A DNA stretch of 43,166 nucleotides from an uncultured Pseudomonadota bacterium (GCA_903890265.1 CAITAM010000086.1:1-43166), one strand, 5' to 3'. Positions 22,940 through 43,166 are shown, counted from the first letter of the stretch. Numbers and translations: made by a program. The notes: a model not told the origin generated them from the sequence alone.

Positions 22940-23854
22940 TCAGAGACCCAGCTTGGTCCGAACCGCACCGGGCCATCGGGCGGGATCAAAGCCGTGGGTT
23001 TTGAAGAGTGCGATGACGATTCGCTCGAGCCCGAAGCCCAGGCAGGCGGTACTCGCGGGCTCGCCGCTCGGCAGGACGATATCGAAGGCAGAGCCGAAGT
23101 ACTGCTGGTGGTAATTGAAGGAACACACGGCGGTCGGCGAGTCACCGTCGTTGACGGGCACGAGCACCTCGAATTTCAGCTGCTGCTGTGCCTGGCTCGC
23201 CGCCATGATCTTGCCGGCCCGGCCGAAAAAAGGATCGGACGCGACGTCGGACACGGCGTCGAGCCCGAGCGATTGGAGGAGCGTGAGGCCACGCTGCAGC
23301 CACATGTCCCGCCACTCCACCACCTGCGCCGGGGTGCCGACCCGGACGAATTCGCGCACCCGAAACGATTGCATCCGCGTGGGCTGCGGTGACGGCTCGT
23401 GACGAAACACCCAGTTGAACATCGTCACGAGATGGCCACTGTCCGGCACGACACCGGTAAAGCTCGGGTAGACCGGGTAGCAGGCCGCCGGATTCAGCAC
23501 GACATCGGTCATCTGCAAGAGGTCGCCCCACGGCTCGCCCGCGGCAATGCGTTGCGAAAAGCCCTTGGAACCGCGTTCATCGCCGAAATAACTGCATACC
23601 GCGCCACACAGGTGCGGGAACGAATCCATGTAATTGAGTTTCTCGATGATCTTGCGGCTGATCACCGGCGGGAACACGCAATAGCGCGCACCGTCGTCCC
23701 TCGAAATCTCATCGACCAGCGCGTTGAACCGTGCCAGCACGAGCTCGAATACCGCACCCCGGCCGAATGCTCCCTGGACACCGACGGGGATGATGAGGCC
23801 GTGCTCGACCAGACCATCGTACAGGGACGTCGGGGGGGCGCTTGCTCCGCTCAT
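22940..23854 (-). CDS. Amino acid:[carrier protein] ligase; class-II aaRS catalytic core (SerRS-like) without a tRNA-binding arm
   Basis: The protein is only 304 aa. Motif-2-like sequence is FRHEPSPQPTRMQSFRVREF and motif-3-like sequence is GFGLERIVIALF. Cys/Glu/Cys candidates (PAACYP, FRHE, AVCSFNYH) match the Zn site described for this family. Confidence 0.8.
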   Translation of the reverse strand: MSGASAPPTSLYDGLVEHGLIIPVGVQGAFGRGAVFELVLARFNALVDEISRDDGARYCVFPPVISRKIIEKLNYMDSFPHLCGAVCSYFGDERGSKGFSQRIAAGEPWGDLLQMTDVVLNPAACYPVYPSFTGVVPDSGHLVTMFNWVFRHEPSPQPTRMQSFRVREFVRVGTPAQVVEWRDMWLQRGLTLLQSLGLDAVSDVASDPFFGRAGKIMAASQAQQQLKFEVLVPVNDGDSPTAVCSFNYHQQYFGSAFDIVLPSGEPASTACLGFGLERIVIALFKTHGFDPARWPGAVRTKLGL

Positions 23855-23867
23855 AGCTCGGTCTCCG

Positions 23868-28154: not shown

Positions 28155-29096
28155 ATGATCTCCTCCAGCCCGGTCCGGCGCTTCTGGCTGGCGGCAGCAG
28201 CCCTCGCGGCTGTCTGCGCGTTTACGGGTCGCGAATGGCTGATCGCCTGGCGCACGGCCAGGGCCGACTTTGCGGGCCACACCGCCGATGCGACGGCGCC
28301 ACGCTGCGCCAGCGCCCGCTCACCCGACCCGATCACGTTCGGCGTGGCCGGTTCCGGTGCGCTGCACGGCTGGTACTCGGCCTCGCGGAACGGTGCCACC
28401 GTGATCGTGCTGCACGGCTCCGGGTCGACGGCGGCATCGATGGTCGCGGAAATGTGCCTGCTCGCCGGCGCCGGATTCGGCGTGCTGGCTTATGACAGTC
28501 CGGGCTTTGGCGAGAGCCCGGGTCACGTCCGCTGGGCCGACGACGAGGAAGCCGCGTTTCACCGTGCCGTGGCCTGGATCGAGGCCCGGGACCCGATGCG
28601 GCCCGAGGCGATCGGCGCCCTCGGATTCTCCATGGGAGCCTACGTGCTGACCTGCGCCGTCGGGCGCGAACCGCGCGTGGGTGCCGTGGTGCTGATTGCC
28701 TCCCCCGATGACCTGCAGCGCCAGATCCTTCACGAGTCGGGGTCATTCCCCGTGCTCAAATGGCCGGCGGCGTACCTGGCGTCGCGCTACCTGCGCGGGC
28801 TTCCCGCTGACAACCGCCAGCCGATAGACTGCATCTCTGACATCAGCCCGCGGCCCCTATTGATGATCCGAGGAGTAAACGACCGCGTCGTACCGGAGGC
28901 CGCCACGACCGCGCTGTACGCGCGCGCGCGGGCACCGAAGGATCTTTGGCTCGTGCCGTCGGCTGGGCACGGAGGCTATCTAGAGGCCGCGCCGCACGCG
29001 TACCCCGAGCACCTGATCGGCTTTTTCGATCGCGCGCTTCGCGCAGCACCCGGGCCACGGACGAGCGAACCGGCGCACGGCGGGCGCAGCCCGTGA
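28155..29096 (+). CDS. Membrane-anchored alpha/beta hydrolase (canonical Ser nucleophile)
   Basis: This is the in-frame tail of track ORF 26922..29096, starting at MISSSPVRRFWLAAAALAAVCAF (TM). Motifs are VIVLHGSG, GFSMGAY and SAGHGGY. Confidence 0.8.
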   Translation: MISSSPVRRFWLAAAALAAVCAFTGREWLIAWRTARADFAGHTADATAPRCASARSPDPITFGVAGSGALHGWYSASRNGATVIVLHGSGSTAASMVAEMCLLAGAGFGVLAYDSPGFGESPGHVRWADDEEAAFHRAVAWIEARDPMRPEAIGALGFSMGAYVLTCAVGREPRVGAVVLIASPDDLQRQILHESGSFPVLKWPAAYLASRYLRGLPADNRQPIDCISDISPRPLLMIRGVNDRVVPEAATTALYARARAPKDLWLVPSAGHGGYLEAAPHAYPEHLIGFFDRALRAAPGPRTSEPAHGGRSP

Positions 29097-30850
29097 CGCT
29101 GCCGGTCGACTTCCTCTACCTTGGCGGCTGCGCCGTCCGGCTGCACCGGGCGTCCGGTCCGCGAGCAATCGTCATCTGCCCGGCGCTCGGCGTGGAAGGG
29201 TTGGTGCTGCACCGGATCGTCCACGACCTCGCGCAGTCACTGCAGCGGGACGGCCACCCGGTACTGGCTATCGACTACCCCGGGACCGGGGATTCCAGGG
29301 ACACGGAGGCGTCCGCCGACCAGGTGCCGCTGTGGGTCGACGGTGTCGTCCGGGCCGTTCAGTTCCTCAGACACCAGCCCGGGGTGCGGGACGTGGTGCT
29401 GGTCGGATTCGACCTGGGCGCCTTGCTGGCGGTGTTGGCGGCCGCGCGGACGGCCGTCGCTGGCGTTGCCCTCGTCGGCCCGCCGGGCAGCGGCCGCGCC
29501 TTCGTCAGGGCGCTGGTGGCCCGTCAGGCGGTCAACGGGGCACCGGACGAGGCATCACGGGTCACCGGCACCCGCGGCGACCTGGAAATCAACGGCTTTG
29601 TTTACAGCGCCGCAACGCTGTCCTCGCTCGAGACCATCACCGTCAAGGACTTGCCGCGTGCACCGGCGCCGGACGTCCTCGTGCTGGGGCGTGGTGGCTG
29701 GGCCCCCGAGGAGCGCCTCTGCCGCGAGTTGCAGTCGCTCGGCGCCAACGCCCGGCTGGAGACGCTCGCGGGCTATGCCGACATGCGCTGGCACTCGACG
29801 TTTTCGGTGCTCGCCCCGGAGGCCTTCGTCGGGCTTCGCCGGTGGCTTGCGGCGCTGCCCCCCTCGGCGAACGAAGCGCCATCTGCCCATGACGAACCGG
29901 CCGATACCCTGGCGGGCCTCGGCTGGGAGGAGTCGCCGCGAACGTTCGGGCACGGTTGCCTGCTGCGCGGCGTTCTCTGCACGCCGGCGCAACGCACGCC
30001 GGACGTCTGCGTTCTGATCATCAATCACGGCGCCAATCGCCGTATCGGCTGGGGTGGAATGTACGTTCCGCTCGCACGGCAACTGGCGGTGCTCGGAATC
30101 GCGTCCTTCCGAGTGGACCTGGCCGGCCTCGGCGACAGCGACCGACGGCCCAACCAGGCCGATCGGGCGCTCTACGACACCGATTACTTTGAGGACGTCG
30201 AGACGGCGCTGCAATACCTGCACGAGCAGGGCTTCGGCCGACTCGCACTGCTGGGTCACTGCAGCGGCGCGTACCATGCCTTTCACGCCGCCTCACGGAA
30301 TCCGCGCGTCATCGCACTCGCGCTCGTCAATCTCGCGCTCTTTCACTGGATTCCGGGCACCTCGCTCGACGAATCCGAGCGAAAGAGCGCAAAGCGCCTC
30401 GGATGGTATGTCGCCGAGGCGGTCAATCCCGCCACGTGGCGGCGGCTGGTCAGCGGCCGGATCAACGTCGGCCACATCGCGAGCGCCTTTGCGCGCCGCG
30501 CGGGCCGGCTGATCCGCGTCCGTGCCAGTGCCGCGCTGCCCGCGTCCACCGGGACCGCGATCAGTGTCGTGGACACGTTCCGCGGGTTCTCGGCGCGCGG
30601 CACACGGGTACTCGTGGTCTACAGTGACAACGATGGCGGCCTTGACGAGTTCTCTCTGCACTGCGGCCGCGGCGGCCGCCGGGTGCTGCGGCTGCCCGGG
30701 GTGTCGCTCGCGTTGCTGCCGGGCGCCGATCACAACGTTTCCGCGCAGAGCGCGCGGGCGCTGTATTTCATCTACCTGCAGCAGTTCCTTGCCGAGGCGG
30801 CCGGCCTGCCGCTCAGCGTGCGACCGGCCAGCCCGTCGCAGTCCGTCTAG
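29093..30850 (+). CDS. Two-domain alpha/beta-hydrolase fusion (resembles the exosortase-A-associated hydrolase 2 + hydrolase 1 pair)
   Basis: A GTG start overlaps the upstream stop (GTGA, coordinates per the ORF track). The N-terminal half reads VICPALG...DYPGTGDS...LVGFDLGALLA. The C-terminal half reads LIINHGAN...DLAGLGDS...LLGHCSGAYHA...VYSDNDGG...PGADHN. Confidence 0.7.
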   Translation: MTLPVDFLYLGGCAVRLHRASGPRAIVICPALGVEGLVLHRIVHDLAQSLQRDGHPVLAIDYPGTGDSRDTEASADQVPLWVDGVVRAVQFLRHQPGVRDVVLVGFDLGALLAVLAAARTAVAGVALVGPPGSGRAFVRALVARQAVNGAPDEASRVTGTRGDLEINGFVYSAATLSSLETITVKDLPRAPAPDVLVLGRGGWAPEERLCRELQSLGANARLETLAGYADMRWHSTFSVLAPEAFVGLRRWLAALPPSANEAPSAHDEPADTLAGLGWEESPRTFGHGCLLRGVLCTPAQRTPDVCVLIINHGANRRIGWGGMYVPLARQLAVLGIASFRVDLAGLGDSDRRPNQADRALYDTDYFEDVETALQYLHEQGFGRLALLGHCSGAYHAFHAASRNPRVIALALVNLALFHWIPGTSLDESERKSAKRLGWYVAEAVNPATWRRLVSGRINVGHIASAFARRAGRLIRVRASAALPASTGTAISVVDTFRGFSARGTRVLVVYSDNDGGLDEFSLHCGRGGRRVLRLPGVSLALLPGADHNVSAQSARALYFIYLQQFLAEAAGLPLSVRPASPSQSV

Positions 30851-32082
30851 CGGGCACCCGAAGGCCCCGGAAACCCACGGGCCTCGACCACCGCACGCTG
30901 CACCAGGAGGTCGATGTCGCACGAGTGCCGGTGCCTCGCCCACACCGCCTCGGCGCGCTGTCGCCACCCCGCGGCGCTGCGCTCGCTGACCCAGCGTCCG
31001 AGCGTCTCTCGCAGCGTGCCGATTTCAAACGGCAGGTAGTCCTCGTCCGGCACCAGCCCCGATCCCCGGACACCGAACGGCGTGGACAGGACCGGCAGGC
31101 GCGCCGCGAGGTACTCGAAGAGCTTCACGTTCGCCCCGGCGCCGCGGGTGATGGGGTTGAGACCGGCATCCGCAGCACAGAAAAACGGCAGGATATCGGG
31201 CACGCGCCCCGTGGCGATCATCGTCTGCGTCCGAAAGGGCGCCGGACAGACGCCGCCCAGCACCAGAAACTGCAAGTTGTGCGCGGTCAGGAACTCCGCT
31301 TCCCGTTCGCTGAATGCCCGCAGCTCGTCCAGCGCCTCGTTGTTCGGACCGTAGCGACTGCCGGCGAACAGCAGCAGCCGGGCATCCGGCTTCACCTCAA
31401 GCTCGCGGCGCGTCGACTCGCGCAGCGCGACCGGCGCCTCGTAACGACGCGGATCCACCCCGCAGCGCACGATCGGCATGCGGCGCAACCCGCTCGGGTC
31501 GTGCGAACGGAAAAACTCATGATCTTCCTCGGCGCACGCGAATACGTCGGTGAATTCCGTGGCAACCGAGACCTCGTGGCGGCGCATCGCGGGCGCATAC
31601 GCCCGCATGGCGGGCGAGCCCTGCTCCAGCAGGCGGTGCTCGAGCTGGTGACTGAGCAGGAACCAGGGCTTCTCCGTCCACGGCCCGGGCACCCGCGGGA
31701 CGTAGGCGTGATCGGCAACGACCGCGTCCGCCCATGCCAGATGGTTCCTCAGCCGTGCGGTAATGCGGCCGGATCCCAGCATGGCGGGGATCCACTGGCG
31801 CGGCCGGTCGCGGTAGCGGGAAATGGCGTGGACGATGGCCGGGTATGGGCCGAGGTACGTCTCCTCACGGACACTGGGCTCGACCTGATCGATACGGTGG
31901 TCCCGGTACCCGGGCCGGTAGGCGGAATAATCCGAGCGACGCCCGGTCAGGCTGTAGATCAGAACCTCGTAGCCCATCCGGCCGAGCGCCGCGGCAAAGC
32001 CCGCCGTGCGCAGCTGCCCGCCGCTTATGACCGGGAAAATCCGCAGTCCCGACAGAACAAGTATGCGCGTCGGGCGGCTCAC
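30847..32082 (-). CDS. Glycosyltransferase, GT-B fold (GT4/group 1)
   Basis: It reads RILVLSGLRIFPVISGGQLRT...LLFAGSRYGPN...GANVKLFEYLAARLPVLST. The GTG at 32082 overlaps the GT2 stop (GTGA). ATG 32109 is an alternative. The Arg-rich 170 aa upstream in the track ORF are unlikely to be real. Confidence 0.8.
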   Translation of the reverse strand: MSRPTRILVLSGLRIFPVISGGQLRTAGFAAALGRMGYEVLIYSLTGRRSDYSAYRPGYRDHRIDQVEPSVREETYLGPYPAIVHAISRYRDRPRQWIPAMLGSGRITARLRNHLAWADAVVADHAYVPRVPGPWTEKPWFLLSHQLEHRLLEQGSPAMRAYAPAMRRHEVSVATEFTDVFACAEEDHEFFRSHDPSGLRRMPIVRCGVDPRRYEAPVALRESTRRELEVKPDARLLLFAGSRYGPNNEALDELRAFSEREAEFLTAHNLQFLVLGGVCPAPFRTQTMIATGRVPDILPFFCAADAGLNPITRGAGANVKLFEYLAARLPVLSTPFGVRGSGLVPDEDYLPFEIGTLRETLGRWVSERSAAGWRQRAEAVWARHRHSCDIDLLVQRAVVEARGFPGPSGAR

Positions 32083-33269
32083 GGTCGGCGCCTCTCGGTG
32101 CGTACCCATTGGGTATGGCTGCGGTTCGTAAGCCGGGTCCAGACCTTCCAGACGACAAACCACGGTACGCGCATGAAATCGAGCACGCCACGCAGACCGA
32201 TACCGCTCAACTGCCAGCCGCGACCGACATAGGCCAGAAGTGCCGCGACGCCGAGCGCATCCGCCACCGCGAGCCATCGGGCACCAGCGCTGCCGAGGAC
32301 GATCAGGCACCCGGTCGCGGTCGCCACCGCCGCGAGCGCAATGACCAGGGTCGACAGCGGCGGGAGGACGAGATCGGCCAGCAGATCGGCGCAGACCGGA
32401 TCGCGCCGCGACACCGTTGCCGTCAGCAGCGTCCTCGCATGCGAGCGCACCAACGCCGCCCGACCGGCCTCCCAGCGCTGGCGTTGCTTCGCGGCGGCGC
32501 CCGACGACGACACCATGTCGCCGAGCACGAACGCCTCGTCGGCGTAGTACACGCGGGCTCCTGCACGAAGCGCAATGTCCATCCCGAACTCGATGTCTTC
32601 CGCCAGCGAATAAGCGCAATAGGGAACTTGTCTCAACAACTCAACCGTCACGCACCAGCCGTTACCGCGAATTCCGCAGGAGAGTGAAAACCGCTCCCGG
32701 GCACGCGAGCGAACGATGTGAAAGCAGGAGAGAGCGACGCTCATCAGCCGTGTCCGCCAGGAATCCATGGGATTCAGCGCGCCGTAGTGGCACTGCACCG
32801 CCTGAGCGCCGGCATCCAGCCGCGACGCCATGGCCTGCAGCAGGTTTTCGGAGACGACACTGTCCGCGTCCACCACGACAATGGCCTGAGAAAACGGGTC
32901 CGCGAGGACCTGCTCGAAGGCGAATTCCAGCGCGTAACCCTTGCCGCGCCGGTCAGCGCTCGTCCGGACGAGCACCTCGGCACCGGCCGCCTGCGCGATC
33001 TCGGCGGTCCGATCGGTGCAGTTGTCGGCGATGACGAGAATGCGCCGGCGCTCCTGCGGCCAGACGACGGCCTTGAGGCTCTGTACCGTTCGCTCGATGC
33101 CGAGCTCCTCGTTGTGTGCCGGCACCACGACGACGAAGTGCCACTCCGCACGGTCGTCGGAATAGCCCGGAAGCCGCCCGGAAAACAGCGTCATTGCCAG
33201 CAGGTAGAGACAGCCGAGCGCGACCGGGACAGTCGCAATCGCGACGACGATCAGCAGCAATGTCGTCAT
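32079..33269 (-). CDS. Membrane glycosyltransferase family 2
   Basis: It has an N-terminal TM, then VVVPAHNEE...VIADNCTDRT...RRGKGYAL...VVVDADS and C-terminal TM segments. Confidence 0.85.
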   Translation of the reverse strand: MTTLLLIVVAIATVPVALGCLYLLAMTLFSGRLPGYSDDRAEWHFVVVVPAHNEELGIERTVQSLKAVVWPQERRRILVIADNCTDRTAEIAQAAGAEVLVRTSADRRGKGYALEFAFEQVLADPFSQAIVVVDADSVVSENLLQAMASRLDAGAQAVQCHYGALNPMDSWRTRLMSVALSCFHIVRSRARERFSLSCGIRGNGWCVTVELLRQVPYCAYSLAEDIEFGMDIALRAGARVYYADEAFVLGDMVSSSGAAAKQRQRWEAGRAALVRSHARTLLTATVSRRDPVCADLLADLVLPPLSTLVIALAAVATATGCLIVLGSAGARWLAVADALGVAALLAYVGRGWQLSGIGLRGVLDFMRVPWFVVWKVWTRLTNRSHTQWVRTERRRP

Positions 33270-33372: not shown

Positions 33373-34323
33373 TCAGAAGCTGTTCAGCACCGAGCCAACA
33401 ACGTGAGTCCCGGTGGTTGCGAGCCGTCGCAGGGCATTCTTCAGGTCCGCCCGACGGGTGTGCCCCGTGCGACTCAGCATCAACGCACGACCCGCGACCT
33501 TCGCGAGCAGCAGCCCGTCGGCAAACTGCCCCAACGGCGGCGTGTCCAGAATGACAAACTCGTACTCCGCCCGCCACCGAGCGACCATGCGGTGGAACGC
33601 GGGGTCGGACAGCATTTCGAGGGGACTCGGCATCGGCGCACCGGCGAAGACGACGGAGAGTTCGGCGATATCCTCGACGTCGTAGGCCTGCAATGGCGCG
33701 CTGAAGGCGATGGCCTGCGACAGGCCCCATTCTTCCGATGAAGACAGGAAAAGCTTGTGCTGCGCCGAGGCGCGGAAATCCGTGTCGATGAGGAGCGTCC
33801 GGCGCCCCAGCTGCGCGTAGCAGATCGCAAGCTCAGCGGCGAGCAGGGAGCGCCCCTCGCGGGTTCCGGGGCTCAGCACCGCGAGCATGCCGTTGTGTTC
33901 GTGGTTCTGCGCCTTGAGCACGAGCTCGGTTCGAAGCGCGCGCACCGCATCGCCGCGTACGCTCCGCGGATTCAGCACCTCGGCAAGCTGCGGTCCCGGC
34001 ACGACGACATTACCGACCCGAAGCGCGCGACTGCGCTCGGGCTCCGGCTCCGGCTGGCTCGCCACCATCCGGACGAGGCTTTTTGCGTCGCCCGAATGCG
34101 GCTCCTTGCCGCCTTGTCCGAGCATGGCGATGATGCCGTCGAGCTGGATCTGGGTAAGGAACCCGAGCCGCAGGGCCGCGGTCGCAAAACCGATCTTCTC
34201 GCCCTGGGCCATCCGCCGGATGGTGTGAATGGCTTCGTCCGAGAGACCAAGCTGGCCGACGATGGCGTCACCGAGCTCGTGCTCCCATTCATTGAGCGTG
34301 TCGCCGGTCACCTTGACCTTCAT
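33373..34323 (-). CDS. EpsG-like chain-length-determinant P-loop protein (BY-kinase/MinD fold) with an atypical Walker A
   Basis: It reads VLSPGTREGRSLLAAELA (Walker A with Arg), LLIDTDFR (A') and FVILDTPP (B). There is no C-terminal Tyr cluster. The ATG overlaps the upstream stop (ATGA). Confidence 0.8.
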   Translation of the reverse strand: MKVKVTGDTLNEWEHELGDAIVGQLGLSDEAIHTIRRMAQGEKIGFATAALRLGFLTQIQLDGIIAMLGQGGKEPHSGDAKSLVRMVASQPEPEPERSRALRVGNVVVPGPQLAEVLNPRSVRGDAVRALRTELVLKAQNHEHNGMLAVLSPGTREGRSLLAAELAICYAQLGRRTLLIDTDFRASAQHKLFLSSSEEWGLSQAIAFSAPLQAYDVEDIAELSVVFAGAPMPSPLEMLSDPAFHRMVARWRAEYEFVILDTPPLGQFADGLLLAKVAGRALMLSRTGHTRRADLKNALRRLATTGTHVVGSVLNSF

Positions 34324-35771
34324 GGACTACTCCGGGACGGCCGGATCGGGCCGAACTCCGCCAGCACAGGGAGGCCGAAATCCCGCTCGTGATCGTCGCG
34401 ATGGCGGATCCTGCGGTTCCAGAACAATTCGTACGCCAATGGCCCCGCGAGACCCATGAGCAGTCCGCCGACCAGGCCCATGAGAAGAAGCTTAACTTTA
34501 CTCGGCTTGGACGGCTTGAAGGGCGGCGTCGCACGATCGATCAGCGTCACGTTGGCGCCCCGACTGTTGGATGCGAACATGATCTGGTCGTAGCCATCCA
34601 GGGCCCGCTTGTAGACCGACTGGGCCGACTCGAGCTCGACCAGCAGCTTCGCTCCCTCGTCCTGCAACTCACGTGTCGCCAGCACCTTCTGGCGCTGGGC
34701 GCCGATCGCTCCCGAGTACTTGCCTTCGAGCTGACGCGCGCTGCGCACTTTCTGCGAGTTGTTTTCCGCCAGGATTCGCAGTTCCGCCGACAGCTGCGCC
34801 CGAACCGCTTCGATCTGCGCGTCCGCTTCGAGGATCTTCGGATGGTTTGGGCCAAAGGTGTTGAGCAGCTTGGCCTTTTCCGCCTCCTTGAGTTCGAGCT
34901 GTGACTTCAGGGTGTTGATCGCGTTGGAGGTCAGCGCCTCGTCCGTTGCCGCCACGTTCGAGGTCGCACGCGATTCGGCGGTCCGCCTCTCATTTTGCGC
35001 TTCCTGCAGCCGGGTCTCGAGGTCCGACAGACCCTGCACATCGATGTCAGATTTCGATTGGGCAGACACGACTTCGGTGAGACCGTTCTTGGCACGGAAA
35101 TCCGTTACCTTGGCCTGGGCTGCGGCGACCTTTGCGCGCAGCTCACCCAACTGCTCCGTGTAACGCTTCGCCCGCTCGGTGGCCGGCCCGCTGGTGCGCT
35201 CACGGTAGAGATCGAGATAGGTATCGGCGACCTCATTGGCGATCGCGGCCGCCGCGTCGGCGGTACGGCCCGTCGCGTTCACGTAGAGCAGTTGGCCGCC
35301 GCGGCCCTCGTAGACCGCGAGCTTGGTCGCGAGCACACGCACCGCCGCGTCACGCAGCACGTTCTGGTCACCGCGTACCCCGCCGGTGAATGACTTGTCG
35401 GCCGTCAGGTTCAGTTTGTCGACCACCTGGTTGAGTACCACCGGGCTCGTGATGAGTTCGGTCTGGGTTGCAATGAAGCTCTGCAGCAGCCCAAGTGGCA
35501 TTTGCTCGCCGGCCAGCGGGTCACGATTCTGGTAGTCAAAAATGAGCGTGGCGCTCGCCGTGTACGCTTTCGGGATGACCTGGATCAGAAGTACCGTGCC
35601 CAAAAGCGTGACGGCAGCAATGGACAGCGAGAGACGCCAGTAGGCGCGCGCAATGCTCAGAAACTGCCCTGCGGAAAAGCCAACCCCGGCATAGCCCTCG
35701 TGTATGGTCGGATAGACCGCATCGAGATCGCTGGAAACGACGAGTCCGGATGAGCGATTAGGACCGTTCAA
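34320..35771 (-). CDS. Wzz/EpsF-like polysaccharide chain-length determinant (PCP family)
   Basis: It has an N-terminal TM followed by YTASATLIFD, a long coiled-coil and a C-terminal TM (LLLMGLVGGLLMGLAG). The apparent TTG start overlaps the Wza-like stop (TTGA). Confidence 0.85.
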   Translation of the reverse strand: MNGPNRSSGLVVSSDLDAVYPTIHEGYAGVGFSAGQFLSIARAYWRLSLSIAAVTLLGTVLLIQVIPKAYTASATLIFDYQNRDPLAGEQMPLGLLQSFIATQTELITSPVVLNQVVDKLNLTADKSFTGGVRGDQNVLRDAAVRVLATKLAVYEGRGGQLLYVNATGRTADAAAAIANEVADTYLDLYRERTSGPATERAKRYTEQLGELRAKVAAAQAKVTDFRAKNGLTEVVSAQSKSDIDVQGLSDLETRLQEAQNERRTAESRATSNVAATDEALTSNAINTLKSQLELKEAEKAKLLNTFGPNHPKILEADAQIEAVRAQLSAELRILAENNSQKVRSARQLEGKYSGAIGAQRQKVLATRELQDEGAKLLVELESAQSVYKRALDGYDQIMFASNSRGANVTLIDRATPPFKPSKPSKVKLLLMGLVGGLLMGLAGPLAYELFWNRRIRHRDDHERDFGLPVLAEFGPIRPSRSSP

Positions 35772-36670
35772 AACAGACTCTCCCTGACCTTCAGCACGTC
35801 GCCCGCCTGGAGCAGGTCGGTGAGTTTCACCGAAACCATATGGGTCTTGCCCGATGCATCCTTGCGCTCGATCTCCAGCCGGCTGTCGCTGCCGCGCGGC
35901 GTGATACCCCCGGCTCGGGCGATGCCCTGGCGCACGGTCATGCCCGGCTCAAGCCGGTACGCATTCGGTGTGACAACCGCGCCGTAGACGTAGAACGTCT
36001 CCGCTTTCGGAACAAAGACTGACTCGCCGCTCTGGATCAGGTAGTCGGCGCCGACCGACAGGGACTGGGTGACGCTCTGCAGGTTAATCGTGCGCCGACT
36101 GACCGTACCGTCCGGCTGGGGATGCAGAACGTAAATCACATCGCCCGCACTTTCGTTGGTGCCACCGGCCTGCGCAAGGAGGTCAAGGATGGTCGTTCCG
36201 CCATCCACGACGTAGCGACCCGGCGTGTGAACTTCACCGAGCACCGTGACGCGCTGACTCCGGGACTGCGTCAGCGCCACGGTGACGTGCGGATTCTTGA
36301 GGAATCCGCCACTGACCAGCGCCGCTTCGATGCGCTTCGCTGCATCAATTGCGCTTCGACCGGCGACGTCGACCGGACCCACGAGTGGCACGTTCAGCGT
36401 CCCGTCGGCCGCGACAAAGAGCGTGCCGTCCATGTCCGGTTGGCCGAAGACCTTCAGGCTGACGCTGTCGCCGGGCCCGAGCGGTACCAGCGGCGGGCCC
36501 TCGCTGGCGGACGGCTCCGCCGCGTACGCCTGCGGGCCCAGCGCCAGGCCTGCGCAGCAGAGCAGCATGGCGAGCCAGCCAAGGCTCACCCTCCACGCCG
36601 GCGCGAAACGCAGCGAAACGTTGGCATATGTCATTTTTCGACTATGGCCGATCGGGTTTGTGTCCGACAT
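35768..36670 (-). CDS. Polysaccharide export protein (Wza/EpsE-like: Poly_export + SLBB)
   Basis: It reads LGPGDSVSLKVFGQPDMDG...DGTLNVPLVGPVDVAG...VTVLGEVHTPGRY...FYVYGAV. An alternative start is MTYANV at 36634. Confidence 0.85.
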   Translation of the reverse strand: MSDTNPIGHSRKMTYANVSLRFAPAWRVSLGWLAMLLCCAGLALGPQAYAAEPSASEGPPLVPLGPGDSVSLKVFGQPDMDGTLFVAADGTLNVPLVGPVDVAGRSAIDAAKRIEAALVSGGFLKNPHVTVALTQSRSQRVTVLGEVHTPGRYVVDGGTTILDLLAQAGGTNESAGDVIYVLHPQPDGTVSRRTINLQSVTQSLSVGADYLIQSGESVFVPKAETFYVYGAVVTPNAYRLEPGMTVRQGIARAGGITPRGSDSRLEIERKDASGKTHMVSVKLTDLLQAGDVLKVRESLF

Positions 36671-36690
36671 TGCGCAGTTCTCACTTCGCT

Positions 36691-36706
36691 TTCAAAAACC
36701 GTGCCG
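36691..36706 (-). promoter_or_regulatory. Sigma-54-like element CGGCAC-GGTTT-TTGAA upstream of the export operon (GG present, -12 reads GA not GC)
   Basis: This is the reverse complement of ttcaaaaaccgtgccg. The GG-to-(G) spacing equals the consensus 12 nt. It lies 21-36 nt upstream of ATG 36670. Confidence 0.2.
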
Positions 36707-36973
36707 CGTTCACGCCTGCGGTGGCCTCGCGCCATGACCGTTTGCGCGGCCGGTCCGCGGCGACCCCGGGGCTCATCCTTCGCTGTGAATGACGCCGGTT
36801 TGACGCGCCAACCGCAGCCCACCGCGCTTCTGTGAATTAGGGCACGACGGCCCTCTGTCGGTATTTTACACTCCGGAAGGGCAGAAGAGCGTCAGGTATG
36901 CCCGACGCGCGGGGCGGTTGCCACCGGAGTCGGGATCGCGCTCGGTCGCTCGCACGGGTCCGCGCGTCTCGCT

Positions 36974-36988
36974 TGGATTGCCTTTCGC
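36974..36988 (+). promoter_or_regulatory. Sigma-54-like element TGGATT-GCCTT-TCGC upstream of the outer-membrane barrel gene
   Basis: It has GG-N10-GC with correct spacing, 31 nt before ATG 37019. Flanking consensus positions are poorly matched, and such strings occur by chance in GC-rich DNA. Confidence 0.15.
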
Positions 36989-37018
36989 CCCAGTCACGAC
37001 ACCACGAAGCATCCTGAA

Positions 37019-38263
37019 ATGAAACCAAATTGTAATTTTCTGTGTCGGGCGGCGAGCCACAACGCTTGGCTGTTGCTTCCGGTGGTACTGGGTCCCGCGA
37101 TCGCGCACGCCCAGTTTGGTGGTACCGCGACGGCATCGGCCGGACTCGAGCACAACTCCAACGTGTTCGCCCTGCCTTCCGGTGAGTCGCCGGCAAGCCC
37201 GTACGCCGGATCGGGGCAAGGGGACACGCTGACCACACTCGGTGTCGAGCTTCGTCCCACCTACCAGCTCAGCCAACAGAAGTTCCTGATCGGGCTCAAC
37301 GGAAACGACTTCCGGTACAACCATTTCACGACCCTCAACCACCGCGAATACGGGGCGAGCGCCGAGTGGCAGTGGGTTGCCGGCGGAGCGCTGGACGGCG
37401 ACCTTCTCGCGTCCCGAACCCGCGACATGGTTCGTTTTGCCGATGTGCGCAGCAGCGAGCTCTTTCTGCAGACGACGACCAACGCCTCCGGGCGCGCCGA
37501 ATGGCATTTGAACCGGCGCTGGAGCATCGAGGCGCGGGGAAGCGCTTTCGAGAACGACTCGCCGCGACCCAATGCGCAATCGCTAGTCCTGAAAGAGCAC
37601 TCCTATGGTTCGTCCATCAAATTCGGCAATACGGTCGACACGTTTTTCGCGATCGCCGGCGATCGCTACGACGGAACCTACACCGGCGCTGAGGCACTGG
37701 CCGGGTTAAGTCCGAACACCACCATTACCTACCATCGCGAGACCCTGCACCTCGTTGGCGATCGGTCGGTCAGCAAGGACGACGTATTGCACGGGGAAAT
37801 CGGGTACACGAAGACGACCATCAGCACCGGATCCAACTACCCCGGCGCCGTGACGGGGAACCTCAGGTACCGGCACCAGCTGACGGGCAAGACCTCCGTC
37901 GAGGCCGGCCTTCGGCGTGAAGTGGTGTCCTATATCACCACGGCCGGGCAGGAAATCAGCACTCTCGGCGACGTTGGCGCGCTCTGGCACGCCACCGGCA
38001 AGATCGACGTAACCGTGCGGGTGGCCGCTGGCAAGGACACGTACCCGGGCTGGAGCTCCCAGCCGAACGGCCTGCCGTCCCCGACTCCCCTTCCAGAGCG
38101 CAGCGACACGAGCCACCAGGAGAGACTGTCCCTGACGTACACCCCGTGGATTCATGTCTCCGTCGCTCCCTACGTGCAATGGAACAGCCGATCCTCGAGT
38201 ATCGACTCCTACGGTTACTCGCAAGCCATCTACGGGATCGTCATTAAAGGGCTGCTGCCGTAG
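37019..38263 (+). CDS. Outer-membrane beta-barrel protein associated with exopolysaccharide loci (EpsL-like)
   Basis: It has a signal peptide (AWLLLPVVLGPAIAHA/Q) and alternating beta-strand pattern throughout (LSLTYTPWIHVSVAPYVQWN...). The family call is from memory and context. Confidence 0.6.
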   Translation: MKPNCNFLCRAASHNAWLLLPVVLGPAIAHAQFGGTATASAGLEHNSNVFALPSGESPASPYAGSGQGDTLTTLGVELRPTYQLSQQKFLIGLNGNDFRYNHFTTLNHREYGASAEWQWVAGGALDGDLLASRTRDMVRFADVRSSELFLQTTTNASGRAEWHLNRRWSIEARGSAFENDSPRPNAQSLVLKEHSYGSSIKFGNTVDTFFAIAGDRYDGTYTGAEALAGLSPNTTITYHRETLHLVGDRSVSKDDVLHGEIGYTKTTISTGSNYPGAVTGNLRYRHQLTGKTSVEAGLRREVVSYITTAGQEISTLGDVGALWHATGKIDVTVRVAAGKDTYPGWSSQPNGLPSPTPLPERSDTSHQERLSLTYTPWIHVSVAPYVQWNSRSSSIDSYGYSQAIYGIVIKGLLP

Positions 38264-38389: not shown

Positions 38390-39445
38390 GTGAAGGCCTC
38401 CAACACCATTCCGTCGCTTGATGGCCTGCGCGCGGTGAGCTTTCTCCTGGTCTACGCGGCCCATTCGGGACTCGATCGCGTGGTTCCGGGCGGATTCGGC
38501 GTGACCATATTCTTCTTCCTCAGCGGGTTCCTGATCACCACGCTCCTCAGAGCCGAGTACGATCGCCGCGAGTCGCTGAACCTGAAGCATTTCTGGCTGC
38601 GGCGGGCGTTACGGATCCTGCCACCGTTCTACCTCGTGCTCGTTCTTTCCATCGTCGTCTCACTTCTGCTGGGGCCACCCGCGGTGGTTTCATCCGGCGC
38701 GGTCGCCGCACAGCTCCTGCATTACACGAATTACTGGATGATCGGCCACGGCGGCGGGAGCGTGCCCATCGGGACCAATGTCTACTGGTCCCTCGCAGTC
38801 GAGGAGCACTTCTACCTCATTTTTCCCTGGTGCTACCTTGCGATGCGCCGCCATGGTTTTTCAGGCCGGCAGCAGGCGGCGACTCTCTACGCGGCCTGCG
38901 CTGCGGTCCTGCTGTGGCGTATCGCCCTCGTCATGGGGCTTGGTGCCAGCGTCGACCGGACCTATCTCGCCACGGACACCCGCGTGGACTCCATTCTTTT
39001 CGGCTGCGCGCTCGCCGTATTCAACAATCCGGTCGCTGACGCGCGCCGCTGGCCCGAACGCGCCGTCAAATACGTCCTGTTGCCGGGCTCCCTGGCGCTC
39101 CTCGTCGCGTGCCTGCTGATACGCTCACCGGAGTTTCGCGAGACGCTCCGCTACTCCCTGCAGGGCATCGCGCTCACCGGCGTATTTACCGCCGCGCTAC
39201 TCTTGCCGTATTGGGGACCCTTCAGGCTCCTGAACTCAAGACCGCTGACCGTACTCGGCACGCTGTCCTACCCGCTGTACCTGGTCCACTTCATGGTTCT
39301 GAACGTGTACTCGGTGCTTTGGCCAGGGTCGCCGCTCGGCGTGCGTGCCGTTGCGTCCGCCGCTGTCTCGCTCCTGATCGCCTGGCTCATTCACGTGCTG
39401 GTCGAGCGACCCGCTGCCCGCCTGAGACACCGTTACGCGGCCTGA
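38390..39445 (+). CDS. Membrane acyltransferase family 3 (OafA/WecH-type O-acyltransferase)
   Basis: It reads IPSLDGLRAVSFLLVYAAH...GVTIFFFLSGFLIT, with about 10 hydrophobic segments. The start is GTG. Confidence 0.85.
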   Translation: MKASNTIPSLDGLRAVSFLLVYAAHSGLDRVVPGGFGVTIFFFLSGFLITTLLRAEYDRRESLNLKHFWLRRALRILPPFYLVLVLSIVVSLLLGPPAVVSSGAVAAQLLHYTNYWMIGHGGGSVPIGTNVYWSLAVEEHFYLIFPWCYLAMRRHGFSGRQQAATLYAACAAVLLWRIALVMGLGASVDRTYLATDTRVDSILFGCALAVFNNPVADARRWPERAVKYVLLPGSLALLVACLLIRSPEFRETLRYSLQGIALTGVFTAALLLPYWGPFRLLNSRPLTVLGTLSYPLYLVHFMVLNVYSVLWPGSPLGVRAVASAAVSLLIAWLIHVLVERPAARLRHRYAA

Positions 39446-39514
39446 CGTCGGCTAGCCGCGGGTTCGCCGCGACTTGCACTGCGCGGCCATGGGCCCGACA
39501 AGAGGACCGGCGAA

Positions 39515-40300
39515 CTAGCCGGCCTCGTGGCGGTCAGCCACCACCCGGGCGAGTTGCGCCAGCGTGGTCGTGCTCTTCATGTCCTCGTCGCGCAGGGCTA
39601 CCCGGTACTCGTCCTCGATCGCCAGCAACAGACGCAGGGCACCGAGCGAGTCCCACTCGGGCAGCGTCGCCGGGCTGTCCCCGGGACCCGGCCGGACGGG
39701 CAGACCCAGAATCCGCTGGGCAAGGGCCTGAATGTCGATCTCGTCATCCGTTTCGGTGCTCTGATCTCGCTGGCGGGCAGGCACGCCCGCAACGCTCGTC
39801 CCTGCGGCGACCGTGCCCGAGACCATGCTGCCGCTCGCCACCGTACAGCCATCGCCAAGCGTTGCGCCGCGCAGCAGTGTTACCCGGGCACCGATCGTCA
39901 CGTCCGCGCCGATCACAATGGGCGCCGATTCACCCTCGGCCTTGCGGTCACTGACCGAGTGGAAGTCGCTGTCCATCACCGTGCAATACGGTCCGAGCAC
40001 GGTCCGGGGTCCAATGCGGACCGCGACCCGCGCCGAAATGGCGCCCCCGTAGGAGACGTGCACGTCGTTACCGAGGTCGATCACGCCTCCGCCGATCGTC
40101 ACCAGGTGAGACGGCGACGGATGAGAACAGATCGTCACCCGCGACCCGAGGGTTATCCTGCCGTCGTTCGATATTGTTGGGCGCCCTTCACACCGGACGC
40201 CCTCCCCGACCTCGTTGACGTCACGCAGCCAGCGGCGTTGCGAACGCTGGCGCAGCCACCCTCGCCACCCGGACTCTCCTCGGCCACGGGCCGCGGTCAT
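39515..40300 (-). CDS. Left-handed beta-helix (hexapeptide) acyltransferase fused to a C-terminal carrier-protein domain
   Basis: Hexapeptide repeats are IGADVTIGARVTLLRGATLGDGCTVASGSMV. After a linker comes LPEWDSLGALRLLLAIEDEY, a DSL phosphopantetheine-site pattern. The ATG overlaps the upstream stop (ATGA). Confidence 0.75.
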   Translation of the reverse strand: MTAARGRGESGWRGWLRQRSQRRWLRDVNEVGEGVRCEGRPTISNDGRITLGSRVTICSHPSPSHLVTIGGGVIDLGNDVHVSYGGAISARVAVRIGPRTVLGPYCTVMDSDFHSVSDRKAEGESAPIVIGADVTIGARVTLLRGATLGDGCTVASGSMVSGTVAAGTSVAGVPARQRDQSTETDDEIDIQALAQRILGLPVRPGPGDSPATLPEWDSLGALRLLLAIEDEYRVALRDEDMKSTTTLAQLARVVADRHEAG

Positions 40301-42663
40301 GCCGGACCCGGCATCGACAGGTCGACGACATCGGGCAAGGCGTAGGGCTGCGCGGCATCCCAGACGAATCGGTTCTCGTCCGTCGCCGCGAAACCGGATC
40401 CTTGCCAGAACGTGAGGCAGGGCTTGTTCTTTGCCGTCGGCAGGTACTGGGCGACGACGCGCTCCGCCCCTGCCTCACGCGCCCGTGCGACAGCAAAGTG
40501 CACCATGGATTCCTCGACCCGCCGACCCATGACGCGGCAGCTGAGGACGAAGTCCACGATGTGCAGGTCGGTGCCACGACGCTCAAGACCCAATAGCCCG
40601 GTCAGGCCCGCCTCACCGAGCCGGTCGGCGACGCTGATGGTCCAGAAGGACTGCCCGGGCGTGGCAGCCCAGGTCGTGAGCTCGGCTTCGGTCAACCTTC
40701 GTGTCGCGAGGTTGAGCTGGTTGGTCTTGTTAAGGAGCTGCGTCGCGCGCACGACGTTGTCCGGCCCCAGAGGGCTGGCGGACACGCGGATACCGAGCTC
40801 GCGAAGCCACTCGTCCACGGAACCCACCTGGGCCTTGAGTGCCTCGCGCTGCCGCTCATCGGCGTACATGCGCGTGCGCTCAAGATCCTCGCGACTGCGC
40901 GATGGCGCGTCAAAGCAGCGCAGGGCTTCCAGCGTGCTGCGGTAGAGGAACGGGCTCTTCGGCCACTCGGGCACGAGCACCTCGGGCAGCGCATGGCGGA
41001 CCCGGGCACGCTCAACGGGGTTGTCGTCAATGAAAACGATGGACTGCAAGCCCAGATTCAGCTGTGCTGCGAGCTCAGCGATATTGGCCGCCTTGTCGCG
41101 CCAGTTGATTCGCCAGCCGACGAAGTCGTCAACGCCGAGCTTCATGCCGGGGTGGTTCCTGATTGCCTCGAGCGCGACCGATTCCTCATTCTTGCTGACA
41201 ATCGCGAGCACCACACCGCGGCGCTTGAGGTCGCGAATCGCCGACTGAAAGTCGGCGTAGGCCTCGCCGACCCCATCGAGCCCCCCGAGGCGCAGGTTCT
41301 CCCACCCGGCATCGCCAACGATGCCACCCCACAGCGTATCGTCCAGATCGAGGACGAGCAGCTTGCGTGGACCACCGCTCAGGCTCGCCAGACCGGCGCG
41401 AATGTCCGCCGCCGCCTCACGCAGCACGTCGCGATGAAAGGCCATCTTGCCGAGGTACCAGGCCTTGGTGTTCCACGCCTTCGGCCCGACGGTCATCAGC
41501 CATCGGCCGGCGTCGAGTACGTAGACGTTCGGGAGCTCGGCAAGCGAGGTCATCAGCCGCAGATTCATTCTGGCGAGCACGCTGCTCGCCCCCTGGGTGC
41601 GGCCGTTCGTCAGGCCAAAGCCCCGACGCCAGGGCGGCTGGGCCCACGAGGCCACAAACACCGTCCGGTAGTGGTCCGCGCCACGCCGGATCAACGCGCA
41701 GAAGGCATCCACCTCCGCGTCCACTGCCGCGAGTTCCACGTCTTCGTAGGCGAGCAGACGGCCGAACGCCGGGACTGCCGTCTCGGCAAGAGTCCAGACG
41801 ACCGCGAAGTCAGCGCCCCCGGGCGGCGGCTCCGTAAGAAGCACCTGGGCGACCTGCGCGTAGGGCGCGATGACGGAGGTGTATCGTGAGCCATCCTCGG
41901 GGTCGGCCAGGTCCAGTGCGAGCTCGTCGATCGTGAAATCCGCAACGAGGTGCCCACCGCCCCGGGCGGGCACGTCCGTCGCCGCGACGGGCGGCGGGGT
42001 GGCACTCGGTTGGGTCGCTGCCGCCGACTCTCCCGGCTTCGCGAGGACGCGGGCCGGTATGCCTCCGGCCATCGTGTTGGGTGGCAGATCGGTCTCGACG
42101 ACACTGCCGGCCATGACAACGGTGCCGTCACCGATTTTGACGCCAGGCCTGACCGTGACACGACCGGCCAGCCAGACGTTCGCGCCAATCTCGATGGGCC
42201 GGGCGGCGGCCGGATCGATCTCACCGACGGCCTCCGGCACATCAATGTCGGAGATGATGCAAAACTGCCCGATCATGGTGCCGGCGCCGATTCGCACCCC
42301 GCGCGCCGCGGCGATGACGGAGCCGTAGTTAACCCAGACCCCTTCTCCCACGTCCATCTGCGCGGAGGGACCGACCTGGAACTCGGTGGGAACCCAGGTC
42401 GAGGTCACGGCGACGCGCGGCCCGATGACCAGCCGGCCCCGGTTCTCGACCCGTACCGGTCCCACGGCGCGCACCCCGTGACCCAGTGACTGCGCGCGCC
42501 GGAAAGCCCAGCGGGCGCGTATACGGGCCACGAGCCCCAACGCGATGCCACTCAGTCGCTCGGCGACGGACCTCTCGGGATCCGACTTCAGGCGCGCGAG
42601 CAGTTGCTGAAACGTGCCATGGGAATCGCCTGACGTCATACCAAGTTCCATTTCAGTCGACAT
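40297..42663 (-). CDS. Tri-domain fusion: hexapeptide acyltransferase + FkbH-like HAD-IIIC domain + C-terminal GNAT-like domain
   Basis: The N-terminal part reads IGANVWLAGRVTVRPGVKIGDGTVVMAGSVV. The middle part reads LLVLDLDDTLWGGIVGD...AIVSKNEE...VFIDDNP. The C-terminal part reads LLNKTNQLNL...FVLSCRVMGRRVE. Confidence 0.85.
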   Translation of the reverse strand: MSTEMELGMTSGDSHGTFQQLLARLKSDPERSVAERLSGIALGLVARIRARWAFRRAQSLGHGVRAVGPVRVENRGRLVIGPRVAVTSTWVPTEFQVGPSAQMDVGEGVWVNYGSVIAAARGVRIGAGTMIGQFCIISDIDVPEAVGEIDPAAARPIEIGANVWLAGRVTVRPGVKIGDGTVVMAGSVVETDLPPNTMAGGIPARVLAKPGESAAATQPSATPPPVAATDVPARGGGHLVADFTIDELALDLADPEDGSRYTSVIAPYAQVAQVLLTEPPPGGADFAVVWTLAETAVPAFGRLLAYEDVELAAVDAEVDAFCALIRRGADHYRTVFVASWAQPPWRRGFGLTNGRTQGASSVLARMNLRLMTSLAELPNVYVLDAGRWLMTVGPKAWNTKAWYLGKMAFHRDVLREAAADIRAGLASLSGGPRKLLVLDLDDTLWGGIVGDAGWENLRLGGLDGVGEAYADFQSAIRDLKRRGVVLAIVSKNEESVALEAIRNHPGMKLGVDDFVGWRINWRDKAANIAELAAQLNLGLQSIVFIDDNPVERARVRHALPEVLVPEWPKSPFLYRSTLEALRCFDAPSRSREDLERTRMYADERQREALKAQVGSVDEWLRELGIRVSASPLGPDNVVRATQLLNKTNQLNLATRRLTEAELTTWAATPGQSFWTISVADRLGEAGLTGLLGLERRGTDLHIVDFVLSCRVMGRRVEESMVHFAVARAREAGAERVVAQYLPTAKNKPCLTFWQGSGFAATDENRFVWDAAQPYALPDVVDLSMPGPA

Positions 42664-42858
42664 AAATCCCGGGCGTCACACGGCCGGCCTGCGGCTCTGC
42701 GCCGGCGACTGGCAATGTGACACCGGGGCACCCGTCCGGCAATTGCCGCCCCGTCAAAGTGCGACCGCGTTCGCTTCATCGCTGGGATCATGCCAGTCGG
42801 CCGTGAAACGCCCGTGGCATAACCCGCTCGCCGGCCGGTCCGAAAACCTCGGTGATGG

Positions 42859-43166
42859 CTACGGGAATAGGTCTGCCCGATCGAGCGGCACGCCGGTCGC
42901 GTCCTTTGCCGACAGGACCGGCGCCCCCTCAAGGGGCCACGAAATGCCGATCGCCGGATCATCCCAGCGGATGCACCGTTCGTGGTCCGGGTACCAGTAG
43001 TCGGTCGTTTTGTACAAGAACTCGGCTACGGGGCTCGTGACGAGAAATCCGTGTCCAAATCCAGGCGGAATCCACATCTGCCGACGGTTCTCCGACGACA
43101 GGAACAGCCCAAACCAGCGCCCGAAATGAGGCGACGACGCCCGAAGGTCCACGGCGACGTCGAACA
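42859..43166 (-). CDS. rfbC: dTDP-4-dehydrorhamnose 3,5-epimerase, N-terminus outside the window
   Basis: It reads FDVAVDLRASSPHFGRWFG...MWIPPGFGHGFLV...YKTTDYWYPDHERCIRWDDP. The frame stays open to the window end. Confidence 0.9.
   Translation of the reverse strand, partial: FDVAVDLRASSPHFGRWFGLFLSSENRRQMWIPPGFGHGFLVTSPVAEFLYKTTDYWYPDHERCIRWDDPAIGISWPLEGAPVLSAKDATGVPLDRADLFP

Follow-up and report, generated by a model that had tools for sequence, protein, structure and literature searches.

Introduction

In the route described for OzmB and FkbH, 1,3-bisphosphoglycerate gives in turn a phosphoglyceryl-S-enzyme, a glyceryl-S-enzyme and glyceryl-acyl carrier protein (ACP) (PMC9057759, PMC7489565). 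A relative of these enzymes is encoded in a 43,166-nt stretch of DNA from an uncultured Pseudomonadota bacterium (GCA_903890265.1, CAITAM010000086.1:1-43166; this whole stretch is referred to as 'the window'), where two overlapping genes, here called gene A and gene B, form a cassette in which the loading enzyme and its carrier are each fused to a left-handed beta-helix (LbH) domain. Protein A shares with the FkbH/OzmB/Tmn16 type a HAD-IIIC domain followed by a C-terminal domain with a conserved Cys, the TIGR01686 family match, an adjoining ACP gene and, presumably, 1,3-bisphosphoglycerate as substrate. Classical FkbH enzymes, however, are about 360 aa long, possess neither pre-HAD nor LbH domains and work with a free-standing ACP. 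In the classical pathways, moreover, glyceryl-ACP goes on to oxidation and methylation, or to condensation by polyketide synthase (PKS) or FabH-like partners; the cassette does not have such partners, and lies instead in a Wzx/Wzy locus.

Two further FkbH-like proteins are of use for comparison. BF1531 of Bacteroides fragilis (3slr), FkbH-like and uncharacterised, has pre-HAD and HAD domains homologous to those of protein A (E 2e-61 over positions 224-589 of the A-family profile; TM score 0.80), and belongs with the unfused relatives in a branch with a core of ~550 aa; it differs in the absence of an N-terminal LbH domain, and its deposited structure is without the C-terminal domain. In Campylobacter jejuni, cj1302 is an FkbH-domain gene of a flagellar glycosylation locus, for which no report of an LbH fusion was found (PMC7099621).

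The LbH domains of the cassette have the fold of MAT, GAT, WcaF, WbbJ and NeuO, whose active site is an interface site built from a loop His and a neighbour's Trp (plus Asn). Crystallised members of the family carry the catalytic His on a protruding loop, and in acetyl-coenzyme A (CoA) users (MAT, GAT, VatD, PaXAT, OatWY and NeuO) a conserved Trp facing this His comes from the neighbouring subunit (PMC3046976). In GAT, H115A costs 90% of activity and W139A is reduced, and the substrate-contacting Asn85 and Tyr83 are numbered as belonging to the other chain (PMC12775004). MAT/GAT-type enzymes are homotrimers that have the full residue set in every chain and take acetyl-CoA as donor; in the cassette, by contrast, each of two paralogs has one part of the set, and a tethered acyl-ACP is the probable donor. 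Transfer of an acyl group from a phosphopantetheinyl carrier protein to a sugar by an LbH enzyme, as proposed for the cassette, is the reaction of LpxA and LpxD, although these draw on the free housekeeping ACP, use long 3-hydroxyacyl chains, are homotrimers and have no close sequence kinship with the cassette. A mixed LbH trimer of active-type and degenerate paralogs is found in the gamma-carbonic-anhydrase/CA-like heterotrimer of plant and protist complex I. Chains of that complex appear among the LbH profile matches; its chemistry and cellular setting are different, and it provides an analogy for assembly only.

Results

The two LbH domains retain complementary active-site residues

As judged from sequence, the LbH domains of proteins A and B (LbH-A and LbH-B) are paralogs, closer to each other (34% identity, E 1e-27, one 1-aa gap) than to any solved enzyme. 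Both match GAT/MAT profiles (E 1e-16 to 1e-26 for A, 1e-16 for B), and profile alignment places His114 of B on the catalytic His of maltose acetyltransferases; the residue of A aligned with His114 is Pro143. Asn and Trp are distributed the other way round, being retained in A (Asn112 and Trp164) and replaced in B (Ser83 at the Asn position, Thr135 at the Trp position). With LbH-A lacking the His and LbH-B lacking the Asn and Trp, neither should be filed as an ordinary acetyltransferase.

This division of residues extends across both families. None of the 166 A-type domains of LbH-FkbH proteins has the catalytic His (132 have Pro), and the equivalents of GAT Asn85 and Trp139 are each present in 163. 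B-type domains fused to ACP (n = 246) have the His in 243 cases (217/220 single-ACP and 26/26 tandem-ACP members); their Asn85-equivalent is G, S or A, with Asn never among the commonest residues, and their Trp139-equivalent is R, T, V, Q or K, with Trp essentially absent. A related, canonical LbH-ACP class (n = 22) has Asn in 19, His in 19 and Trp in 21. The preliminary description of this DNA had each partner of the cassette fused to an LbH acyltransferase of its own: the fusions are real, but the counts speak against each LbH being a working acyltransferase, the FkbH-fused domain having the His in 0/166 sequences and the ACP-fused domain lacking the Asn and Trp. A consensus His at position 134 of many A-family members was considered as another base and rejected, the window protein having Phe there and the position not being that of the loop His.

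Since the MAT, GAT and NeuO structures place the site at a subunit interface, it can be said that A keeps what the neighbouring subunit supplies and B keeps what the loop-bearing subunit supplies. The residue pattern suggests that LbH-A and LbH-B are complementary halves of one enzyme, working as a pair. The same two kinds of domain are found together in other arrangements. Overlapping stand-alone pairs, one gene A-like (Trp, no His) and one B-like (His, no Trp), occur in two Gemmatimonadaceae loci, ~9 kb from the FkbH cassette (L058, 21374-21997/21994-22581, minus strand; L034, 21406-22577, minus strand). In addition, 12 single-chain proteins have an A and a B domain in tandem, and 2-3 have them in reversed order, at lengths of 370-430 aa (P0246, P0251, P0257, P0259, P0261, P0274, P0276, P0281, P0284, P0289 and P0312; reversed, P0354 and P0359); the A half has no His and has Trp in 10 of 11-12, and the B half has His in 12/12 and no Trp. 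Pairs and tandem chains together are indications, of the Rosetta-stone type, that the two kinds of LbH domain cooperate.

It is proposed here that LbH-A and LbH-B would co-assemble as a mixed beta-helix oligomer with its sole complete site at the B-to-A interface, an oligomer that would also hold loader, carrier and transferase together. Taken by itself, the composite site has, in our estimation, a little under an even chance of being correct. The fuller proposal, an obligate mixed LbH acyltransferase that takes its His loop from the carrier-bearing subunit and its Asn/Trp face from the loader-bearing subunit and works as a channelling machine, is more tentative again. A competing arrangement, which we regard as rather unlikely, is a stack of two homotrimers (A3-B3), where the LbH-B homotrimer would be the only transferase and a catalytically dead LbH-A homotrimer would trimerise or dock the FkbH unit, B having lost Asn and Trp since its donor is a polar acyl-S-ACP and not acetyl-CoA. 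Acyl-ACP-dependent LbH enzymes do exist in LpxA and LpxD, the Trp position of B is mostly occupied by Arg, Lys, Gln or Thr, side chains that could bind the hydroxyls of glyceryl, and the 1:1 translational coupling and tandem A-B chains fit stacking more simply than they fit a mixed trimer. A3-B3 leaves unexplained, however, why Asn112, Trp164, Arg168 and Thr170 should be invariant in a mere scaffold, and under stricter conservation than in B, why losses should be exactly reciprocal in three independent arrangements, and why the related stand-alone LbH-ACP class should keep Asn, His and Trp together.

Alternatively, both LbH domains might be active in two different acylations, for example LbH-A base-free with acetyl-CoA and LbH-B with acyl-ACP. 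LbH-A retains the Asn/Trp face and the CoA-side residues, and the LbH N-acetyltransferases QdtC and WlbB work without a catalytic base, QdtC being among the profile matches of the LbH families. Nevertheless this is highly improbable: the catalytic His is absent from every A-type domain, mostly in favour of Pro, the nearest solved relatives are His-dependent O-acetyltransferases, the H115A result for GAT speaks for such dependence, and strict pairing with a complementary paralog would go unexplained.

The fused genes are conserved as a pair

Homologs of protein A number 1496 at E<=1e-5, and the best 120 clusters are almost all 720-820 aa long, with 90-100% query coverage and 53-65% identity; at least 120 LbH-FkbH clusters are near full length. 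Protein B has 241 homologs, and an exhaustive profile search recovered 487 representatives (50% clusters) at E<=1e-30. Two tandem ACP domains are present in 22/121 analysed B homologs (P0123-P0200 subset; L049 3690-4925). The fusions, earlier called unusual, are thus real and conserved, but with at least 120 LbH-FkbH clusters and 487 LbH-ACP-type representatives they are neither rare nor unique.

The A-then-B order with overlapping stop and start was first noticed in a Hyphomicrobium genome, a Myxococcaceae metagenome-assembled genome and a third large contig. Eighty loci from species-representative genomes, parsed with custom domain hidden Markov models (HMMs), comprise 56 with LbH-fused and 24 with unfused FkbH. 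Fused loci come from Myxococcota, Gemmatimonadota, Acidimicrobiia, Hyphomicrobium, Methylomirabilota and others; among the Myxococcota is the cultured Labilithrix luteola DSM 27648 (L041; NZ_CP012333.1, about 6.842-6.845 Mb). An LbH-ACP gene adjoins the LbH-fused FkbH in 54/56 loci, one exception ending at a contig end; an adjacent LbH-ACP partner was found in 0/24 loci with the unfused ~550-aa core (query residues ~237-783), 21 of which have a ~95-aa stand-alone ACP (motif ...LDSLGLVN...) directly upstream. From this near-constant adjacency, and its absence beside unfused cores, it follows that the two fusions arose and travel together. Stop and start overlap at 47/57 junctions (39 overlaps of 4 nt, 8 of 1 nt), and the ATGA overlap of A and B is a predicted instance of translational coupling. 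In these respects the cassette has the self-contained look that had been attributed to it.

Several departures from the common plan were seen. In a divergent subgroup (L057, L060 and L063) the LbH joined to FkbH gives weak scores, that of the LbH-ACP partner is nearer the A-type model, and a third, canonical-looking LbH gene lies directly downstream of the pair. Three Chloroflexota loci (L067, L071 and L082) have a separate LbH beside ACP-FkbH, too divergent for scoring of His, Asn and Trp. LbH-ACP relatives are also fused to adenylation (AMP-binding) domains (P0294, P0304 and P0256) or to FemAB-like GNAT (Acetyltransf_6) domains (P0300, P0335 and P0319), and in P0382 the fusion partner of a B-type LbH is a GT2 glycosyltransferase. 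These fusions resemble further self-contained designs for activating, carrying and transferring a group. On account of these last three kinds of fusion, the logic in which a loader charges a carrier tethered to an LbH transferase can be said to recur in sugar contexts.

Domains of the loader and carrier, and authenticity of the fusions

The ORF calls, HMMs and structure models agree with the preliminary description as to both open reading frames, the ATGA overlap, the quoted motifs (LLVLDLDDTLWGG, VSKN, IDDNP and EWDSLGALRLLLAIEDEY) and every named domain; LSCRVMGRR is present as well. Positions are collected in Table 1.

Table 1. Features of the A-B cassette and of neighbouring genes, in window coordinates.
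Feature	Position	Strand	Basis or remark
Gene A: LbH(A) - linker - pre-HAD - HAD-IIIC - GNAT-fold C-terminal domain	40297..42663	(-)	788 aa ORF
N-terminal helices and LbH-A domain, aa 1-209	42037..42663	(-)	Hexapep, MAT/GAT matches
LbH-A Asn112, retained	42328-42330	(-)	
LbH-A Pro143, at the catalytic-His position	42235-42237	(-)	
LbH-A Trp164, retained	42172-42174	(-)	
Ala/Pro-rich linker PGESAAATQPSATPPPVAATDVPA, aa 210-233	41965..42036	(-)	sequence; pLDDT <50 at residues 212-228
Pre-HAD alpha/beta domain, aa 234-430	41374..41964	(-)	homology to N-terminal part of BF1531
HAD-IIIC phosphatase domain, aa 431-590	40894..41373	(-)	TIGR01681, TIGR01686
HAD motif I DLDDT	41335-41349	(-)	further motifs VSKN, DK, IDDNP
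C-terminal GNAT-fold domain of FkbH unit, aa 591-788	40300..40893	(-)	TIGR01686 to residue 760; Foldseek
Cys709 in LSCRVMGRR	40537-40539	(-)	invariant in homologs
ATGA overlap, gene A TGA with gene B ATG	40297-40300	(-)	sequence
Gene B: LbH(B) - short acidic linker - acyl carrier domain	39515..40300	(-)	261 aa ORF
LbH-B domain, aa 1-178	39767..40300	(-)	Hexapep, MAT/GAT profile matches
LbH-B catalytic His114 in invariant DxDFH motif	39959-39961	(-)	
Acyl carrier domain, aa 190-261	39518..39733	(-)	PF00550, fold matches
Ser218 in WDSLG, predicted phosphopantetheine-attachment site	39647-39649	(-)	
rmlC, 3' part (dTDP-4-dehydrorhamnose 3,5-epimerase)	42859..43152	(-)	PF00908 113.7 bits, profile positions 82-166
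AT3-type membrane acyltransferase, convergent neighbour outside cassette	38390..39445	(+)	PF01757 91.1 bits
EpsG-, EpsF-, EpsE- and EpsL-like genes	33373-38263		best matches, below curated cutoffs
634-aa protein, two alpha/beta-hydrolase domains	28946-30850	(+)	fused exosortase A-associated 'hydrolase 2' and 'hydrolase 1', below cutoff

Protein A matches Hexapep (37.5 bits), with WcaF/MAT/GAT-like matches spanning residues 87-209, the HAD-IIIC model TIGR01681 (57.6 bits) and the FkbH model TIGR01686 (283.6 bits against a cutoff of 146.65, residues 434-760). D439, D441, T443, S490, K491, N492, K524, D546 and D547, which make up HAD motifs I-IV, are unchanged in 121/121 homologs, as are S708, C709, R710, G713 and R714. 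The AlphaFold model of A (mean pLDDT 83) begins with N-terminal helices and a beta-helix, after which come a disordered linker (212-228) and three alpha/beta domains, with Cys709 between a strand (699-707) and a helix (713-730), and its Foldseek matches include, besides BF1531, MAT/GAT LbH enzymes and the MDP-1 HAD fold. The C-terminal domain, previously termed 'GNAT-like', is borne out as such by Foldseek matches to the GNAT structures 3eo4, 6erd, 4mj8, 9mto and 4pv6 (TM 0.6-0.7); no Pfam GNAT model matches protein A, and the assignment is at fold level only.

In protein B the Hexapep match (40.1 bits) is followed by one to PP-binding PF00550 (residues 190-253) that is marginal, at 23.5 bits against a gathering threshold of 20.8. 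This carrier assignment is made firmer by the match of the B-family profile to the ACP 2lml (E 1.8e-7), by the AlphaFold model (mean pLDDT 81), which has a beta-helix (residues 36-164) and a four-helix bundle whose helix II has Ser218 at its N-terminus, and by a Foldseek list in which the best 50 matches are all ACPs (TM 0.72-0.82), LpxD-ACP complexes included. The carrier Ser at the Ser218 position is kept in 119/121 homologs. Both N-terminal regions are accordingly LbH folds, with beta-helices in the models, and the C-terminal ~70 aa of protein B is a carrier domain, as first proposed.

The notion that the fusions are artefacts of assembly or frameshift is scarcely credible. Positions 39400-42800 are covered in four independent runs, all from lake or freshwater metagenomes (two studies), with substitutions only and neither indels nor joints, so resequencing leaves the fusions unsplit; strain variation across this region is mostly synonymous (synonymous to non-synonymous 15:4 and 15:3), and identical architecture is present in hundreds of independent homologs. 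Misassembly of the cassette was ruled out on the first two of these grounds. GC content at third codon positions is 0.80-0.81 in genes A and B, the same as in other window genes (window GC 67%). The nearest relative in a scan of genome contigs has 58% identity. Contigs of runs X5 and X7 end inside the final gene B codons (window 39538-39541), and another contig continues downstream, which suggests that the sequence following the cassette differs between strains. A scan for promoters and terminators gave nothing exceeding chance, and a search for RNA runs found none.

The carried acyl group

As with the dedicated carriers of the FkbH family, the ACP of the cassette is encoded next to its loader, gene B overlapping the gene A stop codon. 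By analogy with the described glyceryl-S-OzmB intermediate, Cys709 is the putative acyl-accepting residue, and from FkbH family membership alone we infer that the acyl group is of glyceryl type. An unlikely but substantive alternative is that the loader makes something other than glyceryl-ACP (lactyl-, glycolyl- or phosphoglyceryl-ACP), or that glyceryl is modified before transfer. The BF1531-type branch of FkbH proteins carries an additional pre-HAD domain, and in unfused relatives a MaoC-dehydratase/SDR fusion, a glyoxalase or a GNAT is often found beside ACP-FkbH. On the other side are the strength of the FkbH match, almost twice the model's cutoff, the invariance of all HAD and Cys motifs, and the fact that the fused cassette travels without tailoring genes.

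Among the unfused loci (L059, L061 and L064-L085), the MaoC-dehydratase/SDR fusion often follows (9 loci), or else a glyoxalase-fold protein (5), and GNAT (6) and polysaccharide-deacetylase genes lie near ACP-FkbH. These neighbours suggest that the unfused systems process the ACP-bound unit further, and such loci may be a way of making a three-carbon acyl group in modified form, for example lactyl. In the parsed loci, these tailoring genes do not travel with the fused cassette.

A polysaccharide setting

The cassette had been placed in a surface-polysaccharide context, and its neighbours, mostly Wzx, Wzy, glycosyltransferases and sugar transferases, sustain this. In the window, rmlC is co-directional with gene A, directly upstream of it and truncated by the window end; contigs of 99% identity show the longer order rmlB-rmlD-rmlA-rmlC-A-B, and in them genes for Wzx, Wzy, GH44 and an AT3 acyltransferase are close by. 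Across loci, the fused cassette is accompanied by Wzx (14 loci), GT2 (13 and 9), Wzy_C (9), GH44 (8, a count that takes in a close relative of the window), MauG-like di-haem peroxidase (7), Bac_transf (6) and GT4 (6). Examples of loci with the MauG-like di-haem cytochrome c peroxidase or GH44 are L004, L005, L022 and L003; L036 and L086-L088.

It could be argued that the cassette feeds a small-molecule or lipid pathway and not a polysaccharide, as classical FkbH does in polyketides and tetronates: two loci (L003 and L089) are without glycan genes near the cassette, and in L004 a non-ribosomal peptide synthetase gene lies 6 kb from it. We consider this improbable, given that the glycan-related families counted above recur, that no ketosynthase, FabH-like or oxidising partner accompanies the cassette, that the window cassette is co-directional with rmlBDAC within an exopolysaccharide (EPS) locus, and that one relative joins LbH-B to a GT2 glycosyltransferase.

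Proposed sequence of events

Taken overall, the cassette is best read as a coupled unit in which an acyl-S-carrier intermediate is formed and then serves to acylate an exopolysaccharide sugar in the cytoplasm, probably by O-acylation, a reading to which we assign a probability of roughly 0.55. The FkbH unit of A would capture an acyl phosphate from glycolysis, 1,3-bisphosphoglycerate being the likeliest, as a thioester on Cys709; the HAD domain would strip the 3-phosphate from the bound unit; and the GNAT-fold domain would hand glyceryl to the phosphopantetheine that Ser218 of B carries. From the tethered ACP the acyl group would then go to a sugar hydroxyl, a cytoplasmic step that the LbH part would carry out; the acceptor would be either a nucleotide sugar or a repeat unit linked to lipid, plausibly one with rhamnose in it. 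An L-rhamnose-containing repeat unit comes into question because rmlBDAC lies directly upstream. Load-and-transfer of a small hydroxyacyl group, as originally suggested, is the best reading because of the conserved pairing, the junction overlap, the glycan neighbours and the stand-alone ACP beside unfused relatives; conservation and context fit it, and the particular acyl group and acceptor stay putative.

Some observations weigh against this reading. The acyl group is assigned by family membership only, and the BF1531-type branch has an extra pre-HAD domain; glycan genes were not seen near the cassette in L003 and L089; and a literature search found no paper on the cassette or on FkbH-dependent acylation of polysaccharide, the one related mention being that of cj1302. 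As to the mixed oligomer, a 1:1 pair and two-domain tandem chains are ill-suited to a three-subunit ring, for which A3 plus B3 would be the simpler solution, and an enzyme that uses acyl-ACP may not need the Trp described for users of acetyl-CoA. LpxA and LpxD are such acyl-ACP users.

Other features of the window

The EPS region of the window continues beyond the AT3 gene with the four Eps-like genes of Table 1, whose scores against the respective cutoffs are 156.5/275 (EpsL), 221.7/262.65 (EpsE), 230.8/422.75 (EpsF) and 162/313.8 (EpsG). According to these models EpsL would be an outer-membrane protein, EpsE a Wza-like protein, and EpsF and EpsG the chain-length and kinase components. The set may be a diverged EPS export system of the XrtB/PEP-CTERM type; no exosortase gene was seen in the window. 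Two glycosyltransferase genes, one GT1-like and one GT2, are also present in this region. The longest GT1-like ORF (30847-32619, minus strand) overlaps the GT2 gene (32079-33269, minus strand) by ~540 nt, and the real start of the GT1-like gene probably lies further downstream.

The 'first' carrier module of the window (19323-25037) contains an amino acid--[acyl-carrier-protein] ligase gene (22940-23854; NF005479, 387 bits against 357), together with genes for a DUF1839 protein (21906-22976), a FadE-like acyl-CoA dehydrogenase (23868-25037), an unannotated 411-aa protein (20674-21909) and a MetA/HTS-like acyltransferase (19323-20549). Among the listed ORFs of this module no carrier-protein ORF of at least 60 aa is obvious. 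Unrelated to the EPS locus are two adjoining paralogous genes of the dimethylglycine/sarcosine dehydrogenase type (DAO + GCV_T; ~810 aa each; window 8737-13704, minus strand), followed by a TonB-dependent receptor gene (14942-17572).

Discussion

The cassette is built of parts from known families (FkbH, ACP and LbH sugar acyltransferases); as a whole it is widespread and uncharacterised, and has an unusual split-site feature. Its present annotations, 'HAD-IIIC family phosphatase', 'maltose O-acetyltransferase' and 'phosphopantetheine-binding protein', mask the true functional unit, a two-gene candidate for linking polyketide-style precursor capture (FkbH plus ACP) to the decoration of glycans. 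Non-carbohydrate substituents strongly alter the physical and biological properties of EPS, the glycerate of gellan being the textbook case. Glycerate esters on EPS are known, for example from gellan (PMC9104527, PMC4432689), and the reviews consulted assign no enzymes to glyceryl-type esters. If the proposal is correct, carrier-protein-dependent glyceroylation of a bacterial polysaccharide would have in the cassette its first defined enzyme system, and the mixed LbH heteromer would be the first split-site LbH acyltransferase, reused elsewhere in the form of stand-alone genes and tandem fusions. The reciprocal loss of half-sites in three arrangements provides a test case for how homo-oligomeric enzymes with interface sites turn into obligate heteromers.

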